A stretch of DNA of 62,950 nucleotides, counting the filler, from Folioceros fuciformis (Eukaryota): assembly GCA_049999805.1 (NCBI GenBank). It is 4 parts of 4 records of this genome, joined end to end, with 100 filler letters (N's around TTAATTAATTAA, not from the genome) between each part and the next. Parts side by side here need not be neighbours in the genome. Positions count along the whole stretch, not along the records: positions 14,270 to 41,669 come from JBNGIO010006186.1; 3 more parts are not named here. The stretch is one strand, 5' to 3'. A program made the position numbers and the translations under genes. Shown here piece by piece: positions 4,601-42,272 of the stretch. The notes below the pieces were generated by a model that worked only from the letters and a program-made list of their open reading frames with translations, was not told where the DNA came from and made no database searches. Position 1 is the first letter of the stretch, and every line of letters starts with the position of its first letter.

Positions 4601-5404
4601 CAGCGGCTTGTCCGGCAGGAATGCCATCCATGTGCCCGAGACAGTCACATCTGCTCGTCCATCGCTTGCAGCTTCTCCACGACCGAGAGTGGCGAAACTT
4701 TTTAGACATAGGTAAAGAAACGTTTCTATCATTCCTCGGTCCCAAGCTGGGCGGCTATAACGCGTAGGCCGCAGTCCAAGAGATCTTGTTTCTTTCACGA
4801 AGGACTTGGGAGGCTCTGGCACGACGTGTATGGAGGGCTCCTTGTCTGACCGTCGTATGTATGTATTTGCGACCCAACCGGCCTGATGATCTCTGAACAA
4901 CGGACAGCACTACTTCAATGAACTGGACTTCGAGGGACCGTGGAAAGCTTCGGATATGCCAGACGGCAGCCTTCCAACTCCGTCGACAGAAAGTACACTA
5001 CGGAGACTGAACGAAAAGTGTGTTCAACTCTGACTACGAGATCGAGGCAAGTCTCCGCAACAGTTGGGATTCCGCGTTCGAAGTCCTGGGGAGTCTACCA
5101 CACATTCTGCAGTCAGCAGGGCGCCGGCTGCGTCTCCAAGACGACGAACCCAGGATAAGAGGGAGCTGCCCAGCCATGTCCCTCAACCAGTCCGTTCTTC
5201 TCGTCCAGTTCGCTAATTCGGCTTCTGATCTGGTGTCCACATCGCTTGTCCTACGGGGAGTGTTGAAAGATTTGTGACTGAGCTCGGGACTGGAGGCTCT
5301 GTTGTCTGTTTCTGCAGCCTTGCACGTTTGGAGTCTTGCTGGGTTTTTCGTCCTCTGAAAATTCCAGTGACGTTGCACGAGGAGGATACCATCAAGATTA
5401 CAAA

Positions 5405-6801
5405 ATGACGATCCAGGCGCTCAACAGCTGCGACAACGAGGCCATCCAGGTCGCCAAGTCCAGCATGTCGGGAGGCAACGGGGAAGCCAGCTACGCCAAG
5501 AACTCGCAATCGCAAGCACACGTCTTCAATTTNNNNNNNNNNTGCGCTACCGGCAGTAACACGTTGAATGCCGTGAAGAGCATTTTGGACGTGGTGAAGT
5601 ACAGATACCGGATTCTGAATGTGGAGATGCCGGAGGTGGAGGTCTCCTTTTCCGATCTCCCTTCCAACGATTTCAACACTATGTTCCAAGAATTGCCGCC
5701 TCTCAATCCTGCGGTGGCCAACCGGTCTCTCAAGGACTTCAGGCGAAATGCTAGCAAGAGGATTTTCTACGCCGGCGGTGTTCCCGGCTCCTTCTTTAAG
5801 GAGAGGCTCTTCCCTTCCAGAAGCATGCACATCATCTCATCCTTCTCGGCCCTGCATTGGCTCTCCGAGGTGAGCTTGCATTTCCCAATCTGCATTCCAT
5901 CCCGCCAGCAGCATTGTTGCCGATCCATATGGAGAAGGATGAAACCGACATGGATCTCCGGTCGGCTGTGTGCAGGTTCCCGCAGAGGTCGTAGACAAAC
6001 ACTCTCTGGCCTACAACAAGGACCGCATCTGGTTCGATGGGACCAGCGGACCAGTACGAGATGTCATCACCCAACAATCCGCGGCCGATTTGACGAAGTT
6101 TCTGCAGTTTCGAGCAGAAGAGCTGGTGCCCGGCGGCATTCTGGTGCTCATGTTCGGAGGCCGATTGGAGAAAGACCGTGTGAGGAACGGGGGGCGGGAC
6201 CTGGCTCACGGGGTAGAAGAGTTCCAAGGTCTGAGCGAGGCCGGCGAGTTGCTTCAACAAAGCTTCCAGGAACTCGTTTCCGAGGTACAAAACCAACTAC
6301 TTCCACAACTTCGCTCGCAATGGCTTTAACCCATTCCACCTCAAACCCACCTCCTCCTGCCACACTTCCCCACGATCCAATTCCTCCTGCCTCTCACAAT
6401 CATATGTACCACTCATTCATTCCCAGGGCGTGATCGAGCAAGAGAAGCTGGACACCTTCAACATCTCAGCTTACAGCAGAAGCCTGGCAGAAGTGAAGAA
6501 AGCTGTGAAGGAGTCGAGGCTGTTCGACATCCACTTACTGGACACCGTGGCCAAGGATGACATCATCCCGGCAGAGGAGAAGAAAAGAATGTGGCCTACC
6601 CGGGAAGCTTTTGGCAGGACCTGGGCAAACAAGACGAGGAGCGTGACATCGGGACTGCTCCACAGCCACATCGGGCCTGAGCTTTCAGACCTCTTGTTCC
6701 AGCGGCTGGAGGCCAAAGCCACCCAAAACTACGACAAGTACAGCAACATCAGGATGTGCGCAATCGTTGCAATTCTGGTCCGCCGATCTCAACAATCCTG
6801 A
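5405..6801 (+). CDS. SABATH-family (SAMT/IAMT/JMT-like) SAM-dependent methyltransferase, copy 1; exons ~5405-5869, 5976-6284, 6427-6801; N-gap at 5533-5542
   Basis: Motifs MSGGNGEASYAKNS, SDLPSNDFNT, GVPGSF, SFSALHWLS, FRAEELVPGG, LDTFNI; GT-AG introns restore the frame. The gap hides ~30 aa that are present in the paralog. Confidence 0.9.
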
Positions 6802-6910: not shown

Positions 6911-7911
6911 TTCTTACGTGTCAAATCCTTATACGTCATCATCTCCCCCTATGCAATTTTTTAAAACGATTCTTTACACTGTTGTTGCTGTAATGGCGGG
7001 GGTTTGGTTCTTCACCATCCTTTTCTTATCCTCCGATAGGCTAGATGTGGGTCGCGTTGGGTGCATGGGAGGTGGATGTGACGTTGTTTAATATTATATA
7101 ATAATATGTTAGGATTATATAATATTACATTTGTACTGTACCTGGAGCTGACAAACTTGGGTGGCCGAACCGCCATATGTCGCAGGAAGCGGTAGCTGCG
7201 GACTTCAGGGACAGGACACCAACTTTTGGGAGCAAACCAGCTGGCTCGCACGACAGGGGAAAATCTCGTACGTATGAACATAGTACACATTTCGATCCTC
7301 CACTTGGCCCTTGTCGGCTTGTGCCTAATCTCAACATGATCGATCTGGCCGGCCATTAGGGTTTCGCCATCGGCCGGGTGCTGGCCGCGAGTTTTCCTTG
7401 TCAATCTGCACTGCCGACGTGACGTTCCTGAAAGGCAAGGCCTCCAGGGAAATAGCACCGTACTGGGAATTGTCACGAGACGGGCGGAAGGTGAGCACAT
7501 GGCGCACAAGCCTGTCGAGGTCTGAATGACATCGTGACTGAAGACTGAGAACAAATTGCTTTGAACGCTTTTGACTAGTAGCCCCCGAGGCAACTGCGAT
7601 ACCGTGTAGACGGTGCAGACCTCAAGTCTGAACAAGTCGTCCGAACAGGCTGCAGAAAGTGTCGGGACATGCCGGCCAGAGGCTATAAGGGAGCTGTCTC
7701 GACGTCGTCACCAGCCATCACTCCTCTTACACATATTCCATGCACATTGCCACCCTGAGGCTCCTGCCTGAAGTGCGTTGAGACGTTGGAGTAGAGGCCG
7801 AGGGATTGCTTGGGACCGCTCTTTGCGCTCCCGCAGGCCTGAGGTTGCTGCCAACTGGTTTTGTTGCTCCTTGCTTGCAACTTGGAGGAGAGGTATCATC
7901 GAGACTGCAAA

Positions 7912-9386
7912 ATGACGATCGAGGCACGCAACGGCTCCGCCGGCGGGGCCGTTCAGGTTGCCAGATCCAGCATGTCGGGAGGTAACGGGGACGCCAGCTA
8001 CGCCAAGAACTCGCAATCGCAAGCTCATGTCTTCAATTACTGTGAGAGCATTCTCTACACCGCTCTGAGGGAGGTGCGGGACATCCCCGCTCCCCCGCCC
8101 GGTGTGCCAGCTCTAAGGATGGCGGATCTTGGATGCGCCACCGGCAGCAACACGCTGAACGCGGTGAAGAGTATCTTGGATGTGGTGAAATCCAGATACC
8201 AGAATGAGGTTGAAGAAATGCCGGAGGTGGAGGTCTTCTTCTCCGATTTGCCTTCCAACGATTTCAACACCTTGTTCCAGGAGTTGCCTCCGCTACATCG
8301 TGATTCCAACCGCTCCCTCAAGGATTTCAAGCGTACTTCTAGCAAGAGGATTTTCTCCGCCGGGGGTGTTCCCGGCTCCTTCTTCCAGGAGAAGTTGTTC
8401 CCTTCGAGGAGCATGCACATCATCTCCTCTTTCTCAGCCCTGCATTGGCTCTCCGAGGTGATTTACTCGCTTCCTCCTGTCCTTTGGTTCTCAGACGGAA
8501 TGCAGAACAAGCAGTGGCGGTTTCGTCTCACAAGGTCATAGGGAATCAATTTGACATCTTCATCATTTTCGAGTGCAGGTTCCGGCAGGGATCACGGACA
8601 AAGACAGCGATGCCTACAATAAGAACCGCATCTGGTTTGATGGAGCGCCTGGACCAGTGCGAGATGTCATTGCTCAACAGTCCGCATCTGATTTGAGGAA
8701 ATTTCTGCAATTTCGAGCGGAAGAGCTGGTGCCCGGTGGCCTTTTGGTTCTCATGTTCGGAGGAAGGTTGGATAAGGACCGACTTAAGACTGCAGGGGAC
8801 CGCACTAACGGAGTGGAAGAGTTTCAAGGCTTGAGTGAAGCAGGCGAACTGCTGCAACAAAGCTTCCAGGAGCTCGTTTCTGAGGTACGATTAGCTACAA
8901 ATCATTCACATCTCCAAGAACGCATCTCAAATTCAGATCCCCCGACTTTGTGCGGCTTCTTGCGCATGCCTCAACAGGATGGTTTCTTTATCTCATGACG
9001 TCCTCCATCTTCACTGACAGGGAGTGATTGATCAAGAGAAGCTGGACACTTTCAACATCTCCGCTTACAGTAGAAGTCTGGCAGAAGTGAAAAAAGCAGT
9101 GAAGGAGTCGAGGCTGTTCGACATCCACTTGCTGGACAACGTGGCGCAGGAGGACATCATCCCGGCGGAGGAGAAGAAAAGAATGTGGCCCAGCCCGGAA
9201 GCATTTGGAAGGAGCTGGGCCAACAAGACGAGGAGTGTTATATCAGGACTGCTCTACAGCCACATCGGGCCTGAGGTTTCGGACGCCTTATTCCAGCGGC
9301 TGGAGGCGAAGGCCACCCAGAGCTACGACAAGTACAGCAACATAAGGATGTGTGCTATCGTTGCTATCCTGGTCCGCCGACCTTGA
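7912..9386 (+). CDS. SABATH-family methyltransferase, copy 2; exons 7912-8457, 8579-8884, 9021-9386
   Basis: Complete motif set including MADLGCATGSNT and FFSDLPSNDFNTLF; same intron positions as copy 1 and a near-identical protein. Confidence 0.93.
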
Positions 9387-10687: not shown

Positions 10688-11789
10688 CTAACGCAGCATA
10701 GAGTGTTTGCCATTCTTCGGACCTTCTGAAGTGACGATGTCCAAGTCCCTCATGCCTTGCTTCAAAGCACCTACAATTCTGGATATGGCATCAGTCTGCT
10801 GCCGGATTACTTCACGCATGTCTACCAGGCTCTGGTCATTGATTTTCCCAGCTACAGGCAGCATGGACCCCGAAGTGGTCCCGACCCCAGCCTGCATCCG
10901 TGAGACTGCTAGCAGCACATCCACCCTCCTCAGCAGCTCCACACTGGTCCCCTGCCACAATCCACACAAAACACGTCATCTCACTATGGTCGTACCGCAT
11001 CATCTTCCCCTGTAACGTCACCACTACAAACAATACCAACCTGTAGCTGGCGGTTGATCGATCGCAGCCGCTCTTGCAACTGTGCCTCCCCCCGGGTGAG
11101 AGCTATATGCAAACCCTTGCCCTCCAAACCCTCCACAATGCGCATAAGCTTGAGCAGTCGGCACTGCAACAAAACATATTCCAGTGTCCACTCTGTGAGA
11201 AAAGGTCATACATCCTCTGCAGCCTCGTGCACCAACATGGCCTCAGGGATGCTAGAACATTCGAGTCCATGCAAGTAACAACCCAACGTTCACACAGTAC
11301 AAGTCTGCCATCCTTGTTCCAAAAACACAGCAGAAAAGTTCAAACCTGCAAATCCTGCTCCTTCCGCCGCAACTTTTGTACCCAGGGGAGCGTATCTGTC
11401 TGAAAGTGCCGCTGCAGCACCTTCACATTGGCCTCCGTCGCCCTCAGCCTTTGCACGTCGTCAGCCAGTGCCTGGTCTTGCAGCTGCAGCCGAATGGACA
11501 AATCCTTAAACCCTGACAGCAGCTCCGGCCAAAGCTTCTCCCGCTCCTGCGGCTCCAGGCCCTCCATCTTGTTGATTGCCTCTGCCCACAGAATGTCCGA
11601 TACGCCCAGAGGTTTCACCCTCGTCTTGGGGTCCGTCACAGAGAGCAAGAGATGCCGGAAGCCATAGCGCGGGTTGGCGGGCTCGTGGTTGTACGCATCG
11701 ATGATGGGTTGCACCTCCCTGGCAGGCAGCGTCACTGCCAGGGGCGCCACCGGCGCCATCTGCGTCGTCAACTGGTTGCTGCCGTACAT
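10688..11789 (-). CDS. NUP54: Nucleoporin Nup54 homolog lacking the N-terminal FG region; exons 11789-11346, 11163-11041, 10951-10688
   Basis: QLTTQMAPVAP, NPRYGFRHLLLSVT, LWPELLSGFKDLSIRLQLQD, MRIVEGLEGKG and QSLVDMREVI match plant NUP54 as I recall it; canonical GT-AG introns. Confidence 0.88.
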
Positions 11790-12009
11790 GGTTCCAGATC
11801 ATGTGCCTCAATCCCCGTCCTCCCGACTTCACAAAAATCCACACTCCTGCCACCCACAAGCCAAAATTCTCCCTCGCACCCCGCGTCGCTCACATTATCT
11901 TTCCCGCGTCGTTCACGTTATCTTTCCTTTTGACTACTATCTTGGGTTTACAAGCTTTTCCCTCCTTGCCTCTCGGAAGACGAGCAGGCAGGCTGGTGCC
12001 TCAGCAGAA

Positions 12010-13014
12010 ATGGCGGCTGCAGCGGTCGGGCCCGGTGGGCAAGGAGCGCTGTCTCTCACTCGCCTGACCACTTTGCAATCCTTGTCCAGCGGCTCAGAGC
12101 TGAGATGCCAGACCCGGGGCTCCCGCTGCTCCGCCACCCTGGTGCTGGAGAGCCCGTCTGTGATGCCGGTGCCTTCTACCCGGAGCACCGCTGAGCCAAC
12201 CAGCAGTGGGTCTGGATTGGACGGGACAATCTACTTCTTCGAAGCGATTGGGGTGGATTCCGACACCGTGTTCTCCAAGTACCCTGCCATTGTCACCGTC
12301 CCTTTGAGCAGACTGGAAGCAGCATTTTGCTTCCTCAAGAACTGTGGGTTGCAAGGAAGGGAGTTGTCCAGAATCGCTAGGAACTGGCCGCAGGTCCTGG
12401 GCTGCAGCGTCGAGGAGCGGCTCCAGCCCAACCTTGACTTTCTGCTAACAGAGGTTGGAGTGGAGAAGAAGGATATCAAGAAGCTGCTCACCAGGGCTCC
12501 CAGGATCCTTGCAACTAGTATAGACTACCAGCTTCGGCCGGCACTAGAGTATCTCCGGTCTCTTGGTCTCACTGACTTGGGTGTCCTGGTGTGCAACAAT
12601 CCAACTGTGCTTTCCGCCGGGATAGAGACTAAGTTGAAGCCCAAATTTGAGTATCTCAAGGGCTTGGGTTTCTCACATGAGTGCGCTGTGGGGATGGTGT
12701 GGAGGTTTCCTTCTATCTTCAACTACAGCATCGAAACCAACCTTATTCCAAAGGTTGAGTATCTGACCAAGGAAATGGGGCGTGATGTAGAGGAACTGAG
12801 AGTGTTCCCGCAGTTCTTTGGATACAGTTTGGAGCAAAGAATCAAACGAAGACATGTGTATCTGGTTGAACGAAATCTAAGAATTTCTCTTGCCAACATG
12901 CTCAAGCGTGAGGATGAGTCTTTTTTCAAGATATGCGCAGATGTTTCACTGTGGAAAGGAAGGAGATCTATAGCTGTAGCAGCCTCTTCTCAAGAAGTTC
13001 CAAGACGTGACTAA
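12010..13014 (+). CDS. mTERF-family organellar protein, single exon; likely start ATG 12010
   Basis: mTERF repeats (WPQVLGCSVEERLQPNLDFL, APRILATSIDYQLRPALEYL, FPSIFNYSIETNLIPKVEYL, FPQFFGYSLEQRIKRRH) after an S/R-rich transit-peptide-like N-terminus. Confidence 0.92.
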   Translation: MAAAAVGPGGQGALSLTRLTTLQSLSSGSELRCQTRGSRCSATLVLESPSVMPVPSTRSTAEPTSSGSGLDGTIYFFEAIGVDSDTVFSKYPAIVTVPLSRLEAAFCFLKNCGLQGRELSRIARNWPQVLGCSVEERLQPNLDFLLTEVGVEKKDIKKLLTRAPRILATSIDYQLRPALEYLRSLGLTDLGVLVCNNPTVLSAGIETKLKPKFEYLKGLGFSHECAVGMVWRFPSIFNYSIETNLIPKVEYLTKEMGRDVEELRVFPQFFGYSLEQRIKRRHVYLVERNLRISLANMLKREDESFFKICADVSLWKGRRSIAVAASSQEVPRRD

Positions 13015-22057: not shown

Positions 22058-25000
22058 TCACTGGCGGTCCCCACATGAACAAAAACCGTCAACAAAATGG
22101 TGGACACGGTGTGCATCTCGCACTATGATCTCTCGCTTTTCGATCCTGGACATGAGCTTCGTGCCACTATGGCAGTCATTGCACATTCTGAGATTCTTTG
22201 TGACCAGCAAAGTTGTGCCAGCAGGGGTGTTCAGCAGACCGTGAGCCAGAGCCAGCTTCTCCGCATGCCCACACAGGCCATCTTCCAGATCTCCATCGGG
22301 TGATGCATTCTGAAGCAACTCCGGGTGTGGGGTATCGTTTATCTCGCCCTCTGCCTGTATATTTACACTCTTCAACTTTGTAGAAATATCGTCCCTTTCT
22401 TCCCCAACCACGAAAGTGTGGATTTTGCTGCTTACTTCAATCCAGGCCCTTGCAGGTTTCTTGCAAATACCTGCGGCCCTTCTCAGGATTTCTAGATTTT
22501 CTACATCCCTCCACCTACCAGCATTTTCGTAAATGCTTGACAAGAGAGCGTACGCAGAAGAATTCTGAGGGTCCACTTTCATGACGCGCTCGAAGCATCG
22601 TCTGCCGCGGTCTATGTCACCATCGCTTCTGCAGGCAGTCAGCAAAGATGTCCAGCCCACTATGTCACTCTCATATGGCATCGTTTGCAGCATATTTTCG
22701 GCCTCCTCTAGCCGGCCTGACCGCCCAAGAACATCAACCACTGATGTGTAGTGGTGGACACTTGGAGTAATACCGTAGTTGTCCACCATCATCTTGAAGA
22801 ATTGCTGTGCCTCACCCACAAGACCTTCATGACTACATGCTGCGAGTAAAGACACAAAAGTGGTGTCGTCAGGCTCAACTCCATGTTTCTGCATCTCTTG
22901 GAAACACTTGATTGCAGATTTGCTCATGTTGTGTTGGCCGTACCCATTCAACAAGGTATTCCATGTCACCACATTTCTCGTGGGCAGTCTGTAGAACAGG
23001 CTGTGCGCATCATCCAAGCTCCCGCATTTGAAGTACATGTCCAACAGGCTAGTGCCGATAACTACATCACCTTCCAGGCCTCTTTCTCGAATTTGGGAAT
23101 GAAGCTGCTTCCCTTGAAGCAGGGCTCCAATACTAGCACAAGCTTTCAATAGCGACACGAATGTAACATTGTTGGCTGGAATGAGACCCTCTTGTTGCAT
23201 TCTTCCATAGAGGTCGAGGGCCGCATCTCCAAGTCCTCGGTCAGCATACCCTGAGATCATAGTATTCCATGTTACTACGTCTCTTGTAGCTAATCCCTCA
23301 AAAAGACGGGCAGCGTCTTCTAGGCTGCCGCATTTGGCATACATGTCCAGCAAGCTGTTGCCAACAACTAATTCAGCTTCAAACCCTCTTTCCCTAATTT
23401 GACAATGAAGTCCCTTGCCCTCTTGTAGAGCTCCTGCAATTGCACACGCTTTCAGCAGGCACACAAATGTCACAATATTGGGTACAGCAAGACCCTCCTG
23501 TTGCATCCTTGCATACAGACTGAGAGCTTCTCGGCCGCAGCCATGCTGAGCATATCCTGCAATCATAGCAGTCCACGTCACAACGTCTTTGGTGGGCAAC
23601 TCTTCAAATGCTCTGAAAGCATCCTCCAGACTGCCACTTTTGGCGTACATATCTACCAGGCAGTTGCCTAGAACCAAACTTGCTCTCAGTCCTCTTTCCT
23701 GAATTTGTGAATGAAGCTGCTTGCCTTCATGCAAAGCTCCCATGTTGGCACAAGCTTTCAAAAGGCACATAAATGTCACTTCGTTGGCAGGACTAAGGCC
23801 TTCCTGCTGCATCTTTGCATAGAGAGCCAGAGCTTCTGCACCATGCTCATGCTCGGCATAACCTGCAATCATAGCATTCCATGTCACCACATCCTTCATG
23901 GGTAATCTGTCAAAGACACCACGGGCATCTTCTAAGCTGCCACACTTGGCATACATGTCTATTAGGCTGTTCCCAATGACCAGATCTATCTCAAGTCCTC
24001 GCTCCCGAATGTGGCCATGAAGCTCCCTCCCTTCATGCAAGACCCCAACACTGGCACATGCTTTGAGGAGGCACACAAAGGTAACCTGGTTGGCTACGAT
24101 TTCACCTTCCTGTTGCATATTTGCATAAAGAGAGATGGCATCGTGCCCGAGCCCATGGTGGGCATATCCACCAATCATGGCAGTCCACGTTACCACATTT
24201 TTTGAGGGCAACCTATCAAACACTCTGCGAGCATCCTCTAAGCTTCCCCACTTGGCATACATGTCGACCAGGCTGCTGCCAACAACTACATCAGCCTCAA
24301 GCCCTCTTTCTCGAATGGCAGCATGCACGGACTTCCCCTCAGGTACCGCTCCAGTCATGGCGCATGCTTTTAGCAGGCACACATACGTCACATCATTGGC
24401 TGGAGCGGTTCCCTCCTTCTGCATCCTTGCATACATAGCAAGAGCTTCTTGAGGCAGCCCATGGTGTAAATAGCCTGCAATCATGGCATTCCATGTCACT
24501 GCATCTTTGGTGGGCAAGCTCTGAAACACACTCTGAGCATCCTGTAAGCTCCCACATTTTGCATACATGTCAACTAAGCTGTTACCTACAAATCTATCAG
24601 GCTCAATAGCACTCTCCAGAAGGTCAGCATGGACCTGCTTCCCATACGCCAAATCTGCCACACTTGCACATGCATTCAGCACAGCCACAAAAACATGATT
24701 GTTGGGCTTCACTGTCGACTGCTGCATCAATTGATACAGTTCCATGGCTTGCATAGGCTGCCGTTGAGCATGTGCAAGGATTATGGAGAACCACATGAAC
24801 GTGTTCGGCGAATCTATTCTGGTGAAAACCTGCATTGCCTCCTGCAACTTCCCATGACCAGCGTACATGCGTATGATGTGGTTGGCTAGAAATTTGTCAG
24901 ACTCGAACCCTGACTTACAAGCAAGGGCATGGACACGCCTTCCAATACCCAAATTCTTCTGTTCAATGCAGCTCTTGAGTAGAGAATATATGAGAGATTG

Positions 25001-25120
25001 TGGAACCCGACATCCTTGATGAACCAGTGAGTCCAAAGCTCCTACGCGCTCTCTCAGCCTCCCCTCCTCATGTAGTTTGGTGCAGATTCCAGGCTCTGAA
25101 GCCGTGCCAAAGCTCGCAAC
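22058..25120 (-). CDS. PLS-class PPR protein (~23 motifs) with E1/E2 and a DYW:KP domain ending in DRQ (DRH-like); true start lies upstream and is unresolved
   Basis: Regular L-S-P triplets; KKPARAWIEV, LCGHAEKLA, CNDCH, HHFVDGFCSCGDRQ*. The frame stays open upstream of the listed TTG (…KLHEEGRLRERVGAL). Confidence 0.9.
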   Translation of the reverse strand, partial: VASFGTASEPGICTKLHEEGRLRERVGALDSLVHQGCRVPQSLIYSLLKSCIEQKNLGIGRRVHALACKSGFESDKFLANHIIRMYAGHGKLQEAMQVFTRIDSPNTFMWFSIILAHAQRQPMQAMELYQLMQQSTVKPNNHVFVAVLNACASVADLAYGKQVHADLLESAIEPDRFVGNSLVDMYAKCGSLQDAQSVFQSLPTKDAVTWNAMIAGYLHHGLPQEALAMYARMQKEGTAPANDVTYVCLLKACAMTGAVPEGKSVHAAIRERGLEADVVVGSSLVDMYAKWGSLEDARRVFDRLPSKNVVTWTAMIGGYAHHGLGHDAISLYANMQQEGEIVANQVTFVCLLKACASVGVLHEGRELHGHIRERGLEIDLVIGNSLIDMYAKCGSLEDARGVFDRLPMKDVVTWNAMIAGYAEHEHGAEALALYAKMQQEGLSPANEVTFMCLLKACANMGALHEGKQLHSQIQERGLRASLVLGNCLVDMYAKSGSLEDAFRAFEELPTKDVVTWTAMIAGYAQHGCGREALSLYARMQQEGLAVPNIVTFVCLLKACAIAGALQEGKGLHCQIRERGFEAELVVGNSLLDMYAKCGSLEDAARLFEGLATRDVVTWNTMISGYADRGLGDAALDLYGRMQQEGLIPANNVTFVSLLKACASIGALLQGKQLHSQIRERGLEGDVVIGTSLLDMYFKCGSLDDAHSLFYRLPTRNVVTWNTLLNGYGQHNMSKSAIKCFQEMQKHGVEPDDTTFVSLLAACSHEGLVGEAQQFFKMMVDNYGITPSVHHYTSVVDVLGRSGRLEEAENMLQTMPYESDIVGWTSLLTACRSDGDIDRGRRCFERVMKVDPQNSSAYALLSSIYENAGRWRDVENLEILRRAAGICKKPARAWIEVSSKIHTFVVGEERDDISTKLKSVNIQAEGEINDTPHPELLQNASPDGDLEDGLCGHAEKLALAHGLLNTPAGTTLLVTKNLRMCNDCHSGTKLMSRIEKREIIVRDAHRVHHFVDGFCSCGDRQ

Positions 25121-27374: not shown

Positions 27375-28670
27375 CTAATTGGACTTGGAGGAGGAGATTC
27401 GTGCCGACTCTTCCTGCGAAGATGGGAAGAGTTCGACATATCTTCTGCCTATGGTCATCTTGTCCTTACACATGGCTGCCTTGGACACTGCAGCATCAGC
27501 AAACTCTACATACGCTTCCCCTGTAGCCCGGCCATCCGAGTGGGTGACGATGTGCACTTGCTCATCCGTGAGGTTAAACCCCCGAAAGAACTCCAGGATG
27601 TCCCGCTTGCAGGTGGAGAAGGGCAGCCCCCGCAGCTTGAGCACCCCGGTGTGCTCCATATTCTCCTTGTCAGTAGAGAGCTTGCTGGCCTGGGCCCCCG
27701 CAGCAGGAGGAGTAGCAGTACCAGCAGCAGCAGCTGATGTTGCTGCTGCTGCTGCTGCTTGGGTTGCAAGAGGAGCATAATCCTCCCTGGGCTCTGCAAC
27801 CTCCGCTGCCACTGCCATGTAGTAGTCCTGCTTCTTGCTGCGGAACACCTCAATGTAGCGGCGGCCCATGTTCAGCCGGTTCCTCTGCAAGGCAAAATCT
27901 ACCTGCATGGGGGCCCCAAAGACCACAAAAGCTTCTCCGGAGAAGCGGCCCCCCTTGTGCTGCAGCAGCACATCCACCACATCCAGGCCTGCAAAAAACT
28001 CAAAGACATCGCTCTCTATGCAGTTAAAGGGCAGGCCCCGAAGGCGAACCACCGGGAACGGTCGAGGCTGCCCCAGCAGCACGGATGCAATCGAGGGGGC
28101 CCCGTATGCAAGCCCGGCCACCTGAAGGGAGGCCGGCGAGCTTGCAAAGTAGGAGCCAGCATCCATCAACCGCTGCCGTTTGGACCCAACCATGTCGTAT
28201 CCACCTGTACCTTCCCCGCTGCCCAACATATTCCTTCATCCCAGCCCGCCCCCCACAACTCACCCGTCAATACATGCCAACCCAACCCTCCCGCAAAGCA
28301 GATCACTTCTGCTCTCTCTTTACCCCTCTCTTTCCCGCAGCAGCTATTCACACCCACACGGCACTGCACTGCACTGCTGGAAATTACGCAAACCCAACAT
28401 GACCTACGACAAGCTGAAAGGGGACTGACTGATGGACTGACTGCCTGAGCGGCTGGAGCATCAAGCACTACGTTGCTCCGATCCATGGCAACCAAAGAAC
28501 CAATACCATAAAGCGGACGCAGAAGCATCAAAAGCCACCGAGCCGGGGCTCAGCATGGCGGCTCCTCTCAGCGTAGGCTGTGCACACCTGAAACAAGGAA
28601 GGAAAGGAAGCAGGTACTTTAACAGGAATGCTAGTATCCTAGCCTTTCACCCTTACCCTCTTGCGAACAT
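27375..28670 (-). CDS. hnRNP F/H-like quasi-RRM RNA-binding protein; micro-exon 1 28670-28657 (MFARG), exon 2 28233-27375
   Basis: Two qRRMs (VVRLRGLPF…GEAFV…MGRRYIEVF; LKLRGLPF…GEAYVEF…IGRRYVELF) joined by an Ala-rich linker. ATG TTC GCA AGA GG|GTAAGG splices in frame. Confidence 0.88.
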
Positions 28671-33151: not shown

Positions 33152-36040
33152 ATGGCCACAGCATGGCAATCGGACCCGCTGTGGACCCAACACATTGTTG
33201 TGAGTACAGGGGTTCTATTAGGAGCTCCCGCTCACCTCACCGTTGGGAGTGAAGCCCTGGTCAACAAAGTCTCCAGACGCAGCAATGTGAGGAGCCTGGC
33301 AATGGGTGGGAACAGCTTTTCCAACGATGGTAGTCGCCAGAGGCAAGACTACTTGTGGCACCAAGTTTTTGCGGACCCTACCTTATGGTGGGACAGCAGA
33401 CGAGAAAAGAAGAGATCCCGTTCGCCTGACGCCCAGCGTAAGGAGTCTGGCAAGTTGCAGTGTGTAGACAACATGTCTAGGCCAGCTGGGGTTGATGACC
33501 AGCTCATTTCCTTGGATGTACAGATGGGTCAGGGTGCATCTCCTTCGAAATGGAGATCTCCGGATGGGGCTGAACCTGGCAGGCGTGATGGATGGGAAAT
33601 GGACGTCGTAACAGCTGGAACCGTGAGCACGTTATGTCAGCAGGGGAAGCTTTCTGAGGCCATTGGGGCTCTAGAGTCTCTGGCGCAGACAGACTCTGCT
33701 ATTTCTCAGTCTCTGTTGTACAATTTGCTGAAGTTGTGTACAGCTAAGAAGGATTTGGTTGTGGGGCGACGAGTTCATGATCTCGCTGTCAAACTTGGGT
33801 ACGATTCAAATGCATTCTTGGGGAACCATATCTTGCGCATGTATGCAAGGGAAGGGAGGCTAGAAGAGGCCATGGATGTGTTCACCAGGGTGGATAAACC
33901 AAATGCCTTCATCTGGGTTTCCATAATCTCTGCACATGCGAAGTATGGGAGGCCTAAAGATGCCATACAACTGTACCATGAGATGCGTAGGTCAGGACTG
34001 GAGGTGGATGCTCATGTGTTTGTAGCTGCCCTTCAAGCTTGCGCATTTGCCGGCGACTTGGAATCCGGCAGAAGAGTGCACTATGATTTTCTGCAGAGTG
34101 GGATTCCCACAAACTTGTTTGTTGGCACCTCCCTGGTGGACATGTATGCAAAATGTGGAGAACTGGAAGATGCACGTAGGGTTTTTGACAGCTTGGCTGC
34201 AAAAAGTGTGGTAACATGGACTGCCCTGCTTGCGGGGTACGCAAATCATGGGTTCAGCCAAGACGCGCTTCTTTTGTATGGGCAAATGGAGGAGGAGGGT
34301 CTGACTGTGGCCGATCATGTTACTTTTGCTTGCCTTCTGAGGGCTTGTGCAAGCACGGGTGCCATACAGAAGGGCAGGCAGCTGCACTCTCAGATTGTGA
34401 AAAGAGGACAGCTGCCTGACCTCCTTTTGGGCAACTGCCTGGTGGATATGTATTCAAAATGTGGTGAACTGAATGATGCTCGCCAGGTTTTTGACAGCTT
34501 GGCCACAAAAGATGTGGTGACATGGACGTCGATGATTGCTGGGTACGTCCAGCAGGAACTCGGGCATGAGGCACTTATTTTGTACGAACAAATGGAGCAA
34601 GAGGGCCTAGTGTTGGCTAACCATGTCACTTTTGCTTGCCTTCTAATGGCGTGTGCAAGCACAGGTGCCTCACAGAAGGGCAGGCGGCTGCACTCACAAA
34701 TAGTTGAACGAGGACTGCTGGATGACGTAGTGTTGGGCAACTGTCTGGTGGGCATGTATGCCAAATTTGGTGAGATGGAGAATGCACGCCAGGTTTTTGA
34801 AAGCTTGGTCACCAAAAATGTGGTGACATGGACAGCGCTGATTGCTGGGTATGCACAGCAAGGACTCGGCCATGAGGCGCTGGTTCTGTATGGACAAATG
34901 GAGGAGGAGGGCCTCTTTTTGGCTGATGATGTTACATTTTCTTGCCTTCTAAACGCCTGTGCAAGCACTGGCGCTTTACAAAAGGGCCGGCAGCTGCACT
35001 CTGAGCTTGTCAAACGAGGACTGCTGGATGACGTCGTGGTGGGCACCTGCCTGGTGGACATGTACGCAAAATGTGGAGAACTTGTAGAGGCACGCCGGGT
35101 CTTCGACAGCTTGGCCACAAAGAATCTGGTGACATGGAATGCCCTGATATGTGGGTATGGTACCTGCGATGAGGGTCACAGTGCGCTAGCTTGTTTTGAG
35201 GAGATGTTAGCTGCCGACATCCAGCCGGATGGCGTTACTTTTACTTGCCTTCTAGTAGCGTGTAGTCATGCAGGACTGGTTCAGGAGGGTCGCAATCACT
35301 TTGAATCCATCGCTGAACAACATGGCATCAAACCCACTATTGAGCATTACGTTTGCATGATTGATCTTCTTGGGCGTGCAGGCCATTTAGATGAGGCTGA
35401 AAACATGCTCCTATCATGTGAAGGCCAAAGTAATGTTGTGGGCTTGACATCTTTCTTGAATGCCTGCAAAAGTCACGGGGATTTAGAGAGGGCGAGGTGG
35501 TGTTTTGAAAGGATTGTTAAGCTAGATCCGCAAGGGGCATCAGCGTATGTGCTCATGGCCAATGCCTACGCAGATGCAGGTATGTGGATCGATGTAGAAA
35601 GGATTGAAACACAGAGAATGTTAGCAGGAGCTAACAAGAAACCTGCAGTGGCGACTATTGAGGTCAATATGCAGGTACATAGATTTCTGGTGGGAGAAAG
35701 GAGAGAGGATATTGCTCTTAAGGCAGTGAGCACGAATGCACGTATCAAGCAGGAAGGAGGGCACGTTCCTCAAACCAAGCTGGTATTGAAGCCAGGGTGT
35801 GAGAAGGACAAGGAAATTGCACTTTGCGGGCATGCTGAGAAGCTAGCTCTGGCATTTGGTCTCTTGCACACTCCAAGTGGAATACCTCTGGTGGTAACAA
35901 AGAATCTGCGGATGTGCAATGACTGCCACAGGTCCACGGAGATCATGTCAAGGCTTGAACACAGAGTCATTGTTGTCCGAGATGGGTACCGTGTGCATCG
36001 ATTTGCAGCTGGTTGTTGCAGTTGTAAAGGCCGACCTTAA
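33152..36040 (+). CDS. PLS-class PPR protein (~17 motifs) with a GRP-type DYW:KP domain and a degenerate N-terminal PDF-like motif
   Basis: Single ORF; KKPAVATIEV, LCGHAEKLA, CNDCH, CCSCKGRP*; N-terminal LWHQVFADPTLWWDSRREKKRSRSPDA. Confidence 0.93.
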   Translation: MATAWQSDPLWTQHIVVSTGVLLGAPAHLTVGSEALVNKVSRRSNVRSLAMGGNSFSNDGSRQRQDYLWHQVFADPTLWWDSRREKKRSRSPDAQRKESGKLQCVDNMSRPAGVDDQLISLDVQMGQGASPSKWRSPDGAEPGRRDGWEMDVVTAGTVSTLCQQGKLSEAIGALESLAQTDSAISQSLLYNLLKLCTAKKDLVVGRRVHDLAVKLGYDSNAFLGNHILRMYAREGRLEEAMDVFTRVDKPNAFIWVSIISAHAKYGRPKDAIQLYHEMRRSGLEVDAHVFVAALQACAFAGDLESGRRVHYDFLQSGIPTNLFVGTSLVDMYAKCGELEDARRVFDSLAAKSVVTWTALLAGYANHGFSQDALLLYGQMEEEGLTVADHVTFACLLRACASTGAIQKGRQLHSQIVKRGQLPDLLLGNCLVDMYSKCGELNDARQVFDSLATKDVVTWTSMIAGYVQQELGHEALILYEQMEQEGLVLANHVTFACLLMACASTGASQKGRRLHSQIVERGLLDDVVLGNCLVGMYAKFGEMENARQVFESLVTKNVVTWTALIAGYAQQGLGHEALVLYGQMEEEGLFLADDVTFSCLLNACASTGALQKGRQLHSELVKRGLLDDVVVGTCLVDMYAKCGELVEARRVFDSLATKNLVTWNALICGYGTCDEGHSALACFEEMLAADIQPDGVTFTCLLVACSHAGLVQEGRNHFESIAEQHGIKPTIEHYVCMIDLLGRAGHLDEAENMLLSCEGQSNVVGLTSFLNACKSHGDLERARWCFERIVKLDPQGASAYVLMANAYADAGMWIDVERIETQRMLAGANKKPAVATIEVNMQVHRFLVGERREDIALKAVSTNARIKQEGGHVPQTKLVLKPGCEKDKEIALCGHAEKLALAFGLLHTPSGIPLVVTKNLRMCNDCHRSTEIMSRLEHRVIVVRDGYRVHRFAAGCCSCKGRP

Positions 36041-36517
36041 GGCTCAGAATAGTGAAGAATCATCTAGCCAGTTCGATCTTGCTGAGCTACGGAGTCTGAA
36101 AGACCACCAAAATGATTCGTGAGGAATTTGTCTTTCTGCCTAGAAACACAGACGAATCCTTTTTCCCCATCTTAGTTTATCAAAAGTTCGGATTACTATA
36201 TTTCGAAAATAGAAACACTAACACCATTCCTGGTGTCATGGAATACATTATTTCTGTGTCTGAACAGTCATGGTGTCCAAGAACAGTATCCAGCTGTTGA
36301 AGGATCGTTGGGCTTCTTCGCCCGTCCGCCTTGTGAGCATGAGAGGTCCGGAAGACATGTCTCAAGCTGTGGGAACCAAGTTCCACGATGTTTGTCAAGG
36401 GGCCAGTCACAGCGGCCTTGATCCGCCTCACCCACAACTTCGGCGCTATGCTGCCCATCGGGTAGCGATTTGGCGCTCGACCTGGGGAACAGGTTGAGCT
36501 CATTCGCTGCCCTGGCC

Positions 36518-38803
36518 ATGGCTTCGGCAGCGCAACGACTACGCTCCTTGCTGCGAATTTCTCCTGCTGCCTGCTCATTCTTTTCCTCAGCTGCCGTCCG
36601 GAGCGGCGTAAGGAGCCCAGCACTACCGCTTCCGAGAAAATGTGTGGTTGGGGACGGGTTTTCCAGCGATGGTCGTTGCCAGGAGCAGGAGCACCTGTGG
36701 CAACAATTTTTTTTGGACCCTTCCATGTGGTGGGACAACAGACGAGATAAGAAAAGCTCCCGTTCGCCTGACTTCCGCCGTAGGGGATCCGGCGAGGTGC
36801 TGTGGTTGAACAGTATGTCTAAGCCAGCTTGGGTTGATGAGCAGCTCCTCTCCTTGGATCTGGGGGTGGGTGCAGGATCGGAAATGGGCGTTGCAACCGC
36901 TGGAACCGTGAGCATGTTATGTCAGCAGGGAAAGCTTTCTGAGGCCGTTGGAGCACTTGAGAATCTGGCGCAGACAGATTCTGCTATTTCTCAGTCCCTG
37001 TTTTACAGTGTGCTGAAATTGTGTACAGAAAAGAAGGACTTGGTTATGGGGCGACGAGTCCATGATCTCGCTGCGAGACTTCGGTACGAGTGGAGTGCTT
37101 TCTTGGGGAACCATATCTTGCGCATGTATGCATATGGAGGTAGCCTGGAGGAGGCCTTGGATGTGTTCACCAGGGTGGCCAAACCAAATGTCTTCTTGTG
37201 GGTTTCCATAATCTCTGCTCATGCTAAGCACGGGAAGCCTAAAGAGGCCATACGACTGTACCATGAGATGCGCAGATCAGGAGTGAAGCCGAATGCTCAC
37301 GTCTTTGTAGCTGTCCTTCAGGCTTGTGCATTTGCGACCGACTTGGAATCCGGGAAAAAAGTGCATCGTGATGTGGTGCAGAGTGGCATCCCTACTAACT
37401 TGTTTGTTGGCAACTGCCTAGTGGACATGTATGCCAAATGTGGCGAACTGAAAGATGCACGCCAGGTTTTTGACAGCATGGCCACAAAGGATGTGGTGAC
37501 GTGGACGGTGCTGATTGCTGGGTATGCCAAATGTGGAGAACTGGAAGATGCACGCCGGATTTTTGACAGCATGAACACGAAGAATGTGGTGACATGGACT
37601 GCCCTGATAGCTGGGTATGCCCAGCAAGGGCTCGGCCATGAGGCGCTTGTTCTGTATGCCCAAATGGAGGAGGGACTCATTTTGGCAGACGACGTCACCT
37701 TTGCGTGCCTTCTTAACGCCTGTGCAAGCACTGGCGCTTTACAAAAGGGAAGGCAGCTGCACTCAAAGATTTTCGAAAGAGGACGGCTGGATCACGTAGG
37801 GGTGGGCAACTCCCTGGTGGACATGTATGCAAAATGTGGTCAACTGGAAGATGCACGCCGGGTTTTTGACAGCATGAGCACGAAGGATGTAGTGACATGG
37901 AATGCCCTGATATTTGGGTATGGTACTTGTGATGATGGCCGCAGAGCACTAGCTTGTTTTGAGGAGATGTTAGTTGCTGGTATTCAGCCTGATGGTGTAA
38001 CTTTCACTTGCCTTTTAGCAGCATGCAGTCATGAGGGACTGGTTCACGAGGGTCGCAAGTACTTCGATTCCATGGCTGAGCAACACGGCCTCAAACCAAC
38101 AATTGAGCATTACAATTGTATGATTGACCTTCTTGGGCGTGCCGGGCATTTACATGAGGCTGAGAACATGCTCTTATCATGCGGCGGCCAAAGTAATGTT
38201 GTGGGCTTGACGTCTTTGTTGAGTGCCTGCAAAAGTCATGGGGATTTAGAGAGAGCCATGTGGTGTTTTGAAAGCATTATTCAGCTGGACCCTCGGTGGA
38301 CGTCTGCGTACGTGCTCATGGCCAATGCCTATGCAGATGCAGGTAGGTGGACCGATGTGGACAGGATTGAAACACAGAGATTGTTAGCAGGAGCCAACAA
38401 GAAACCTGCAGTGGCGACCATTGAGGTGAACAAGCAGGTACATCGATTTCTGGTGGGAGAAAGGAGAGAGGATATTGCCCTTAAGGTTGAGAGCACGAAT
38501 GCACGCGTGAAGCAGGAAGGAGGGCACGTGCCTCACAGTAATTTGGTGTTGAAGCCAGTGGGTGAGAAGGAAAAGGAGGACGCGCTTTGTGGACATGCCG
38601 AGAAGCTAGCCCTGGCGTTTGGTCTCTTGAACACACCCAGTGGGACACCTCTGGTGGTAACGAAGAACCTGCGTATGTGCAGTGACTGCCACAGTTCGAC
38701 GGAAATCATGTCAAGGCTTGAACAAAGAGACATTGTCGTAAGGGATGGGTACCGTGTACATCGATTCGCAGCTGGGTGTTGCAGTTGTAAGGGTCGACCA
38801 TGA
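36518..38803 (+). CDS. PLS-class PPR protein (~12 motifs) with a GRP-type DYW:KP domain and an intact N-terminal PDF-like motif; likely start ATG 36518
   Basis: Presequence-like MASAAQRLRSLLRIS…; WQQFFLDPSMWWDNRRDKKSSRSPDFRRRGSGEVLWL; KKPAVATIEV, GHAEKLA, CSDCH, CKGRP*. Confidence 0.93.
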   Translation: MASAAQRLRSLLRISPAACSFFSSAAVRSGVRSPALPLPRKCVVGDGFSSDGRCQEQEHLWQQFFLDPSMWWDNRRDKKSSRSPDFRRRGSGEVLWLNSMSKPAWVDEQLLSLDLGVGAGSEMGVATAGTVSMLCQQGKLSEAVGALENLAQTDSAISQSLFYSVLKLCTEKKDLVMGRRVHDLAARLRYEWSAFLGNHILRMYAYGGSLEEALDVFTRVAKPNVFLWVSIISAHAKHGKPKEAIRLYHEMRRSGVKPNAHVFVAVLQACAFATDLESGKKVHRDVVQSGIPTNLFVGNCLVDMYAKCGELKDARQVFDSMATKDVVTWTVLIAGYAKCGELEDARRIFDSMNTKNVVTWTALIAGYAQQGLGHEALVLYAQMEEGLILADDVTFACLLNACASTGALQKGRQLHSKIFERGRLDHVGVGNSLVDMYAKCGQLEDARRVFDSMSTKDVVTWNALIFGYGTCDDGRRALACFEEMLVAGIQPDGVTFTCLLAACSHEGLVHEGRKYFDSMAEQHGLKPTIEHYNCMIDLLGRAGHLHEAENMLLSCGGQSNVVGLTSLLSACKSHGDLERAMWCFESIIQLDPRWTSAYVLMANAYADAGRWTDVDRIETQRLLAGANKKPAVATIEVNKQVHRFLVGERREDIALKVESTNARVKQEGGHVPHSNLVLKPVGEKEKEDALCGHAEKLALAFGLLNTPSGTPLVVTKNLRMCSDCHSSTEIMSRLEQRDIVVRDGYRVHRFAAGCCSCKGRP

Positions 38804-39200: not shown

Positions 39201-40089
39201 ATGGCTTCGGCAGCGAGAGGCGTATCCTCCCTGCTGCGCCTGGCGGATGCTGCCTCCCCGTCTTCTGGCTCTGCTGCCGTCCGGAGCAGTGTAAGAAGCG
39301 CATTTCTTCCCCTTCCGAGGAATTGTGTGGGGGATACGGAGCAGGAGCCCTTGTGTCAGGACCCATCCATGTGACGGAACTACAGACGAGATGAGGCGGA
39401 CTCCCATTCGCCTGACTTCCGGCGTAAGGGGTCCGGCGAGGTGCTGTGGTTAAACAATATGTCTAAGCCAGCGTGGGTTGATGCGCATCTCGTTCCCTGG
39501 GACATGCGAATGGGTGGAGGATCCGAAATGGGCGTCGTGACGGCTGGAACCGTCAGACTGTTATGTCAGCAGGGGAGGCTTTCTGGGGCCGTTGGAGCCC
39601 TGGTATCTCTGGCGCAGACAGACTCTGCTATTTCTCAGTCCCTGTTTTACAGTGTGCTGAAATTCGTTACAGGATTTGGCTGTGGGGCGCCTAGTTCATC
39701 ATCTCACTGCCAAACTTGGGTATGAGTCCAATGCGTACTTGGCGAACCATATCTTGCGCATGTATGCTTGGGGAGGTAGCCTGGAGGAGGCCATGGATGT
39801 TTCATCAGGGTGGCCAAACCAAATGTCTTCATGTGGTCTTCCATAATCTCTGCTCTTGCTAAGCACGGGAGACCTAAGAGGCCATACGACTGTACCATAA
39901 GATGCGCAGGTCAGGAGTGAAGCCGAATGCTCACGTCTTCGTAGCTGTCCTTCAGGCTTGTGCAGTTGCTGCCGACTTGGAATCTGGGAGAAAAGTGCAT
40001 CGTGATGTGGTGCAGAGTGGCATTCCTACCAACTTGTTTGTTGGCAACTGCCTAGTAGACATGTATGCCAAATGTGGCGAACTGAAAGA
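39201..40089 (+). pseudogene. Truncated, frameshifted third copy of the PDF-PPR-GRP gene
   Basis: High nucleotide similarity to 36518-37455 with indels and stops (e.g. atgtgacgg for atgtggtgg); similarity stops after KCGELKD. Confidence 0.88.
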
Positions 40090-40098
40090 CTCGGAAAT

Positions 40099-40118
40099 CC
40101 TAAACCCTAAACCCTAAA
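40099..40118. repeat. Telomere-type repeat (CCCTAAA)~3 at the pseudogene breakpoint
   Basis: cctaaaccctaaaccctaaa read directly. Confidence 0.85.
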
Positions 40119-41669: not shown

Positions 41670-41769
41670 NNNNNNNNNNNNNNNNNNNNNNNNNNNNNNN
41701 NNNNNNNNNNNNNTTAATTAATTAANNNNNNNNNNNNNNNNNNNNNNNNNNNNNNNNNNNNNNNNNNNN
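41670..41769. other. Artificial contig spacer
   Basis: N44-TTAATTAATTAA-N44. Confidence 0.95.
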
Positions 41770-42272
41770 TTGAAGAGGTGTGCGTCGCCCGCCCAGCATC
41801 CGTCGGGAAGCTGAGAACGCACCACCCACTCCAGCGCTGCAGGAAACTGCGGCCCCGCCCCGCCGCCCACCGCCGGCACCATCGCCACCCACGCCGCGTC
41901 GTACGGGCTCCCGGAGATCTCCCCGTCCCCGAGCGACTGCAGCATGCTCTTGATGCTTCGGATCAACTCCTGGACTTCAACCACCTCCGGATCCGGCTGC
42001 TCCACCTTCTGCACCTCCAGGTCGAGCGTGGCTTGTATATCTGCAGCCAGAGCTTGCAGTGGACCGAGTCCGAGAACCTGCCGAACTTGCTCCGCCTCAT
42101 GCTTGCCTCGTCCACTACTTCTCTCGATCGAACGCACAACGCTGCCCGCAACCTTTGTGGGTCGGCTTATTTGGTCTCGACTGCTCCACCCTGGTAGACA
42201 CACTCGGCGTTGCAGAAAAGAATTCCAAGATACCGCTGCAGCTCGTGAGGCACCCACTGCAGCCATTGCCAT
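41770..42272 (-). CDS. Diterpene synthase (CPS/KS-type), transit peptide and start of gamma domain; 3' part lost at the contig end
   Basis: IKSMLQSLGDGEISGSPYDAAWVAMVP…PQFPAALEWVVRSQLPDGCW contains variants of the SAYDTAW and QxxDGSW motifs; plastid-transit-like N-terminus. Confidence 0.88.

Follow-up and report, generated by a model that had tools for sequence, protein, structure and literature searches.

RNA editing in plant organelles owes its specificity to PLS-class PPR proteins, from which programmable RNA base editors are also built, and the PDF motif was reportedly described (by Zaegel et al., in 2006) as belonging to the plant organellar single-stranded DNA (ssDNA)-binding proteins OSB1-4. 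In the present study, we describe a gene of Folioceros fuciformis, here called gene B, in which a PDF motif of the OSB type stands ahead of the PPR tract of an editing factor of the DYW:KP type; it lies in a stretch of 62,950 nucleotides, the whole of which is hereafter called the window. This is a real fusion that many seed-free land plants share, and in the literature searched it is apparently unreported. Both the motif and the family are known, and it is their recurrent architecture that is new.

The closest described system is that of the OSB proteins themselves. In the relevant passages of three reviews (PMC6963530, PMC4166229, PMC6451138), these consist of an OB/SSB-like domain followed by one to four C-terminal PDF motifs, each a unit of about 50 amino acids that binds ssDNA, and the passage on binding in PMC4166229 states that OSB1 and OSB2 favour ssDNA over double-stranded DNA or RNA. 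The motif borne by PPR proteins is the same unit with the same 14 conserved columns, but in gene B it is N-terminal, single-copy and carried by a PLS-PPR-E-DYW factor without an SSB domain. The candidate and synthetic U-to-C editors of the DYW:KP subgroup (PMC9478123, PMC11845758, PMC13386178) share, as far as the relevant portions of these papers describe them, the domain set and the KP box of gene B and of its tandem paralogue, gene A; they differ in that those portions mention no N-terminal PDF motif in the designs or surveys. Maize PPR4, according to the section on it in PMC9459714, offers a parallel in layout, namely an N-terminal RRM as a second module of general RNA-binding type ahead of the PPR tract, but that domain is of another family and the protein is a P-class splicing factor rather than a PLS editing factor. 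Lastly, the MORF/RIP proteins of seed-plant editosomes are likewise accessory to PLS editing factors, although they work in trans and have no sequence relationship to the PDF motif. In the part of PMC13386178 concerned, MORF genes are confined to seed plants and DYW:KP proteins to hornworts, lycophytes and ferns; with the fusion seen here only in seed-free plants, the distributions of MORF and of PDF-bearing PPR proteins look complementary, in a limited sample and with no shared mechanism implied.

The original prediction knew of no description of such a fusion, and our literature check, made mostly in main texts from outside the subscription journals, found none either. Of the five papers retrieved with 'PDF motif', three were about OSBs and none mentioned a PPR fusion, and OSB or OSB1 in combination with DYW, PPR or PLS gave nothing relevant in the literature searched. 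The main text of PMC13386178, a 2026 survey of domain fusions of editing factors in 364 genomes, contains none of the terms 'OSB', 'PDF' and 'ssDNA'; PMC9478123, on synthetic KP editors, contains no 'OSB', and its sole 'ssDNA' belongs to a cited work about designer PPR proteins. A review of PPR proteins in Physcomitrium likewise makes no relevant mention.

Gene B and the homology of its motif

Gene B (36518-38803, + strand) is an intact PDF-PLS-E-DYW:KP editing-factor gene, a single unbroken open reading frame (ORF) that runs from the first ATG at 36518 to a TGA stop ending at 38803 and encodes 761 amino acids, with Pfam matches to PPR (1.7e-68), E_motif (5.8e-14) and DYW_deaminase (4.6e-32). 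All on the same strand, it comprises a presequence-like N-terminus that is basic and rich in Ser and Ala (residues 1-59, 36518-36694), the well-preserved PDF motif (residues 60-111, 36695-36850), a short linker modelled with low confidence (residues 112-127, 36851-36898), a PLS-class PPR tract of helix pairs matched by Pfam PPR families (residues 128-624, 36899-38389), and a C-terminal region with the DYW:KP deaminase domain (residues 632-761, 38411-38800), modelled as strands and helices over residues 632-751; the Pfam DYW_deaminase match spans 685-775 of the 777-amino-acid ORF counted from TTG. The translation of 36695-36856 (+), LWQQFFLDPSMWWDNRRDKKSSRSPDFRRRGSGEVLWLNSMSKPAWVDEQLLSL, is exactly that quoted in the original prediction and lies inside the one uninterrupted ORF; its claimed place in a DYW:KP gene, after the presequence and ahead of the PPR tract, agrees with the translation, the Pfam matches and the full-length model.

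Because the C-terminus reads ...CSCKGRP and the KP box KKPAVATIEV replaces the PG box (xPGCSWIEV) of canonical homologues, which end in ...DYW, gene B is a DYW:KP-type PLS protein; the relevant text of PMC9478123 gives the KP box and a non-DYW end as marks of this subgroup. Upstream of it, gene A (33152-36040, +), an intact paralogue of 962 amino acids recognised by its ORF, its Pfam matches and its alignment with gene B, also ends in ...CSCKGRP and has a similar set of Pfam domains (PPR, E motif, DYW deaminase), so that both genes present a PLS tract, E motif, DYW deaminase domain, KP box (KKPAVATIEV in each) and non-DYW end. Pfam found no SSB domain in the ORF of gene B or in gene A, even at E<=1; since this domain is absent and the motif is N-terminal, neither product is an OSB, despite its PDF motif.

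The motif is not represented in Pfam (the 54-amino-acid stretch alone matched no family), and homology was therefore tested directly. A phmmer search with this stretch against 1.84 billion representative proteins gave 577 matches at E<=1e-3, of which 109 reached E<=1e-10 and 15 reached E<=1e-30. Among the best 150 of the 577, which were inspected, 44 carried the Pfam SSB domain (PF00436) upstream of at least one C-terminal copy of the motif, the layout that the reviews give for OSBs (20 among the 73 for which the Pfam threshold was E<=1e-3 and 24 among the 77 for which it was E<=1e-4, some of them under Pfam's own cut-off), nine were PPR proteins and one had a kinesin motor domain; for the rest, Pfam was silent or returned weak matches to unrelated families. 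Three matches bear OSB names from their sources: P0121 (Drosera capensis) and P0033 (Populus nigra) are each called "OSB1, mitochondrial-like", and P0048 (Euphorbia peplus) "organellar single-stranded DNA binding protein 3". In a BLASTP comparison, the window stretch was 55% identical to the OSB1-like P0033 over 51 amino acids (E 9e-18) and 47% identical to the second motif of that protein. A word-index protein search yielded only 3 candidates for the motif and 5 for the N-terminal region of the whole protein, with no useful match among them, a blank that reflects the limit of that method, given the 577 matches of phmmer.

A control profile drew only on proteins with an SSB domain (65 motifs taken from 36 of them, with the Drosera OSB1-like protein as the seed). 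It scored the copy of gene B at 69.0 bits (E 8.4e-23), that of gene A at 33.0 bits and that of a neighbouring pseudogene at 29.1 bits. The 36 proteins had come from the query with the window stretch, which is a mild ascertainment bias; neither their SSB domains nor their names depend on it. As to homology alone, we consider it nearly certain that the stretch is a genuine OSB-type PDF motif, and the identity proposed in the original prediction is upheld by this profile and by the likeness to P0033.

Two observations on the matched proteins may be added. P0056 (Coptis chinensis, 1526 amino acids) has three PDF-motif stretches N-terminal to its kinesin motor domain and could be either a true fusion or a gene model merging an OSB-like gene with a kinesin gene. 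Two proteins, P0003 (Kingdonia uniflora, 1160 amino acids) and P0004 (719 amino acids), contain 13 and nine PDF-motif stretches, respectively, whereas the reviews give OSBs one to four.

With a general profile of 428 motif instances from proteins elsewhere, a six-frame scan of the whole window found exactly three copies, the next-best matches lying below 0 bits, and this three-copy match is far beyond chance. The copy of gene B scored 73.7 bits (E 2.5e-24), its profile envelope stopping at 36850, six bases short of the end that had been given earlier (36856). The copy of gene A (33353-33505, +; 37.8 bits), with SPDA in place of SPDF, is indeed degenerate, as had been noticed. The third copy (39351-39491, +; 39.1 bits) belongs, downstream of gene B, to pseudogene C (39201-40115, +, its end approximate), a truncated third paralogue whose translations contain stops and a frameshift; this copy keeps SPDF and is broken, again as claimed, by an in-frame stop at 39372-39374, so that its first half is damaged and its second half intact.

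Distribution and history among PLS-PPR proteins

A search with the whole protein gave 4276 PPR homologues at E<=1e-20, and the best 120 PLS-PPR proteins, a sample skewed towards relatives of the query, were scanned with the motif profile. The motif was present on 31 of the 120, about a quarter, always N-terminal, in one to three copies and reaching as far as residue 327. The original prediction had tied it specially to DYW:KP reverse (U-to-C) editors, a claim that fails here: the motif was found in 9 of 63 proteins with a canonical xYW/xFW end (the nine carriers showing a PG box, one of them with PE), in 4 of 21 with a variant C-terminal end, mostly with a KP box, and in 18 of 36 with no DYW end. 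These counts give no enrichment in DYW:KP proteins among the 120 nearest homologues, several of the motif-negative KP-like homologues being N-terminally truncated gene models. Furthermore, the KP-like homologues P0290 and P0257, scored as negative, retain sub-threshold remnants of the motif at their N-termini; decay losses therefore seem frequent, and the carrier counts are lower bounds.

By source, in a tally made by hand, the motif occurred in 23 of 33 proteins of Diphasiastrum complanatum, 2 of 8 of Adiantum capillus-veneris, the single proteins of Sphagnum fallax and Calypogeia fissa, one JGI-named protein (1 of 1) and 3 of 26 Logan records. It occurred in none of the 22 ENA records, the 13 proteins of Cryptomeria japonica, the 13 "Gb_" records and the single proteins of Taxus chinensis and Tetracentron sinense. 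The carriers among these homologues are from lycophytes, ferns, a moss and a liverwort, and the profile scan found no motif in the 28 named seed-plant homologues among the best 120 of 4276. The nine PPR proteins among the best 150 phmmer matches came from Adiantum (two), Ceratopteris, Pteridium, Selaginella, Diphasiastrum (two) and other records (two), and Pfam found no DYW domain in any of these nine. Within the limits of the sample, the fusion counts as a general trait of the PLS proteins in seed-free plants.

An additional observation concerns contigs of sequencing runs. In runs X2, X3 and X15, many contigs of about 100 nucleotides, with at least 90% likeness, stack on 36505-36751 as heavily as on the PPR repeats, and this pile-up on the motif region hints at large families of PDF-bearing PPR proteins in relatives. 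Run X1, the best of the runs, has exact contigs that continue through intergenic DNA, for which reason it is probably of genomic origin; from the remaining runs came nothing but stacks of paralogous PPR contigs of about 100 nucleotides.

The history of the architecture was approached with a FastTree phylogeny of 116 motifs over 52 columns, in which related sequences share labels. This tree requires only 4 changes between PPR and OSB labels, whereas 500 shuffles required 38 on average and never fewer than 30. Moreover, 51 of the 53 PPR-borne motifs fall into three adjacent pure clades, while both motifs of one Adiantum protein lie among the OSB motifs. The pattern suggests that the motif was captured once or a few times long ago and then spread as the PPR family did. 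With PPR-borne motifs set apart from those of OSBs, and present in lycophytes, ferns, a moss and a liverwort on PLS proteins of C-to-U type, of U-to-C type and without DYW, the architecture appears to be old, although it is often in decay, as in gene A.

Predicted fold and possible roles

The motif alignment used for AlphaFold2 comprised a 62-amino-acid piece of the window and 35 single-copy matches, in which W6, D18, R20, K23, P29, D30, F31, W41 and W50 are invariant. The motif-only model, with a predicted local distance difference test score (pLDDT) of 90.8 and a predicted template-modelling score (pTM) of 0.73, shows a helix (2-11), short strands (16-18 and 31-33) and a second helix (50-59), so that the motif is predicted to fold independently as a small helix/short-strands/helix unit. 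Foldseek against the PDB gave no clear relative of the model (best E 3.6), VIA-align against 48,161 chains gave no row at Z>=5 (best Z 3.2), and a sequence search of PDB chains with the motif gave no match (best E 0.31); for a model of 62 residues, these blanks prove nothing and indicate neither a new fold nor a known one. A full-length model of gene B from a 31-row alignment (pLDDT 82.5) places residues 1-50 and 116-124 below 50 and the PPR solenoid, from residue 128, mostly above 90. The predicted order is thus a presequence, the motif as a small module of its own, a flexible connection and the PPR tract. Beside this, we observed that a conserved helix, LC..G.L.EA...L (residues ~128-150 in gene B), comes after the linker in almost every homologue, whether the motif is there or not, and marks where the PPR solenoid starts.

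In 63 OSB-borne motifs, conservation reaches 85% or more at fourteen columns (W2, P9, W12, D14, R16, K19, P25, D26, F27, K30, L36, W37, P44 and W46), and in 51 PPR-borne motifs of other species it is 90-100% at these columns; being common to both, they point to selection on the same residues in both contexts. The copy of gene B retains 13 of the 14 (K30 being R).

When a PPR tract binds RNA, its N-terminal end faces the 5' end of the target. Upon this orientation, we propose that the PDF motif, which would lie in the mature N-terminus of a PLS-class editing factor and be connected to the first PPR repeat by a flexible linker, would grip the single strand of nucleic acid immediately 5' of the element that the PPR tract recognises, independently of sequence, and that such a clamp may add affinity or hold the upstream RNA unfolded, as an accessory that catalysis does not require. 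The motif probably survives import, since it is conserved and folded and since tandem copies in homologues lie far past any presequence; binding to nucleic acid is to be expected because the OSB reviews report ssDNA binding and because the aromatic and basic columns are shared. An essential catalytic role is unlikely, given that synthetic KP editors are reported to edit U-to-C and that the copy of gene A has decayed. Taken as a whole, with the homology included, we regard the proposal as evenly balanced between being right and being wrong.

Several points weigh against this clamp. Gene A, otherwise intact, has lost 4 of the 14 columns (F27->A, L36->Q, W37->C, W46->G; 10 of 14 kept), and between genes A and B the ratio of non-synonymous to synonymous substitution (dN/dS) stands at 0.80 over the 52 codons of the motif, where 26 differences are non-synonymous and 8 synonymous, and at 0.20 over the other 626 codons; gene A hence appears to manage without a working motif, which looks locally dispensable. 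Remnants and losses of the motif are common among homologues. In the full-length model, the motif region reaches a pLDDT of only 46-69, with no confident docking onto the PPR tract. The synthetic KP editors, described in the relevant portion of PMC9478123 as an N-terminal tag, PLS triplets and DYW:KP without such a motif, are reported to edit U-to-C; and RNA is not the obvious ligand, because OSB1 and OSB2 prefer ssDNA, as stated in the same passage of PMC4166229. Furthermore, a single origin of the fusion is only suggested, as the tree has just 52 columns and its related sequences share labels.

The preference of OSB1 and OSB2 for ssDNA over RNA, together with the ssDNA binding of PDF motifs given in the cited passages of the reviews and the retention of the same 14 columns in PPR-borne motifs, leads to the main rival of the clamp, namely a tether to the nucleoid, as put forward in the original prediction. 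Here the motif would bind ssDNA and hold the editor at transcription bubbles, R-loops or intermediates of replication and recombination, so that editing would be co-transcriptional. The motif is, however, also present on PLS proteins lacking the DYW domain and is readily lost, and we consider such a tether unlikely.

The decay in gene A, which affects one of the two intact motif-bearing genes of the window and is accompanied by the raised dN/dS of the motif, could also mean that an ancient fusion has little or no function left in this lineage and persists merely until it is mutated away; the sub-threshold remnants in P0290 and P0257 and the score of 0 of 28 among the named seed-plant homologues fit with this as well. 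On the other side stand the 13 of 14 columns kept by gene B and the 90-100% conservation of these columns in the 51 PPR-borne motifs of other species, which argues for long-term purifying selection, and the intact second half of the motif in pseudogene C suggests that decay there was recent. A relic of this kind is, in our opinion, distinctly unlikely.

As to proteins rather than nucleic acid being the partner, the motif might serve for self-association or for contact with OSBs or other PDF-bearing proteins, in keeping with its tandem arrays and with the tetramer reported for AtOSB2 in the corresponding passage of PMC6963530; yet the pertinent passages of the reviews attribute ssDNA binding, not oligomerisation, to the motif, and we hold a role of this kind to be highly improbable. 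Finally, that the likeness is due to chance, or that the stretch is a piece of a cleaved targeting peptide, as its position only ~60 residues past the start codon might suggest, is barely credible; against it stand the match to the SSB-only OSB profile (E 8.4e-23), the confident predicted stand-alone fold (pLDDT 90.8), the conservation across land-plant lineages and the tandem copies extending to residue 327.

Neighbouring genes and meaning of the fusion

The window also contains a fourth KP-type PPR-DYW ORF, gene D (22058-25036, - strand), recognised by its ORF and its KP box (KKPARAWIEV) and ending in ...CSCGDRQ. The six-frame profile scan found no PDF motif in or upstream of this ORF, which begins at TTG with no in-frame ATG upstream; either its N-terminus lies on another exon or the gene is truncated. 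Further ORFs, at 5336-6433, 7861-8541, 11674-13014, 27375-28229 (-) and 41718-42272 (-), resemble by their motifs what we take to be, in this order, two tandem fragments of SABATH-type methyltransferases, an mTERF-like protein, an RRM protein and a copalyl-diphosphate-synthase-like fragment beside a run of N. In total, the window has 9 N runs with 384 N.

The accessory domains of editing factors have been catalogued in detail, yet the OSB-type motif is absent from the literature searched, the kingdom-wide fusion survey of 2026 included. Its discovery extends the range of the PDF motif past the OSB proteins and supplies a confident, although predicted, model for a motif without a solved structure. 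The fusion also provides a lead on how editing factors work without MORF helpers, on whether editing is coupled to nucleoid DNA, and on whether an add-on of 55 amino acids could raise the affinity of engineered PPR editors. A bolder thought, which we consider quite improbable, is that the PDF-motif clamp might be an ancestral built-in helper in the MORF-less seed-free plants, one that would couple editing to nascent transcripts or R-loops at the nucleoid and that would have been lost once MORFs took over in seed plants. If this were true, organellar editing would have a physical link to transcription or to the metabolism of DNA in bryophytes, lycophytes and ferns, and motifs of the OSB type would serve as tools for DNA and RNA alike.

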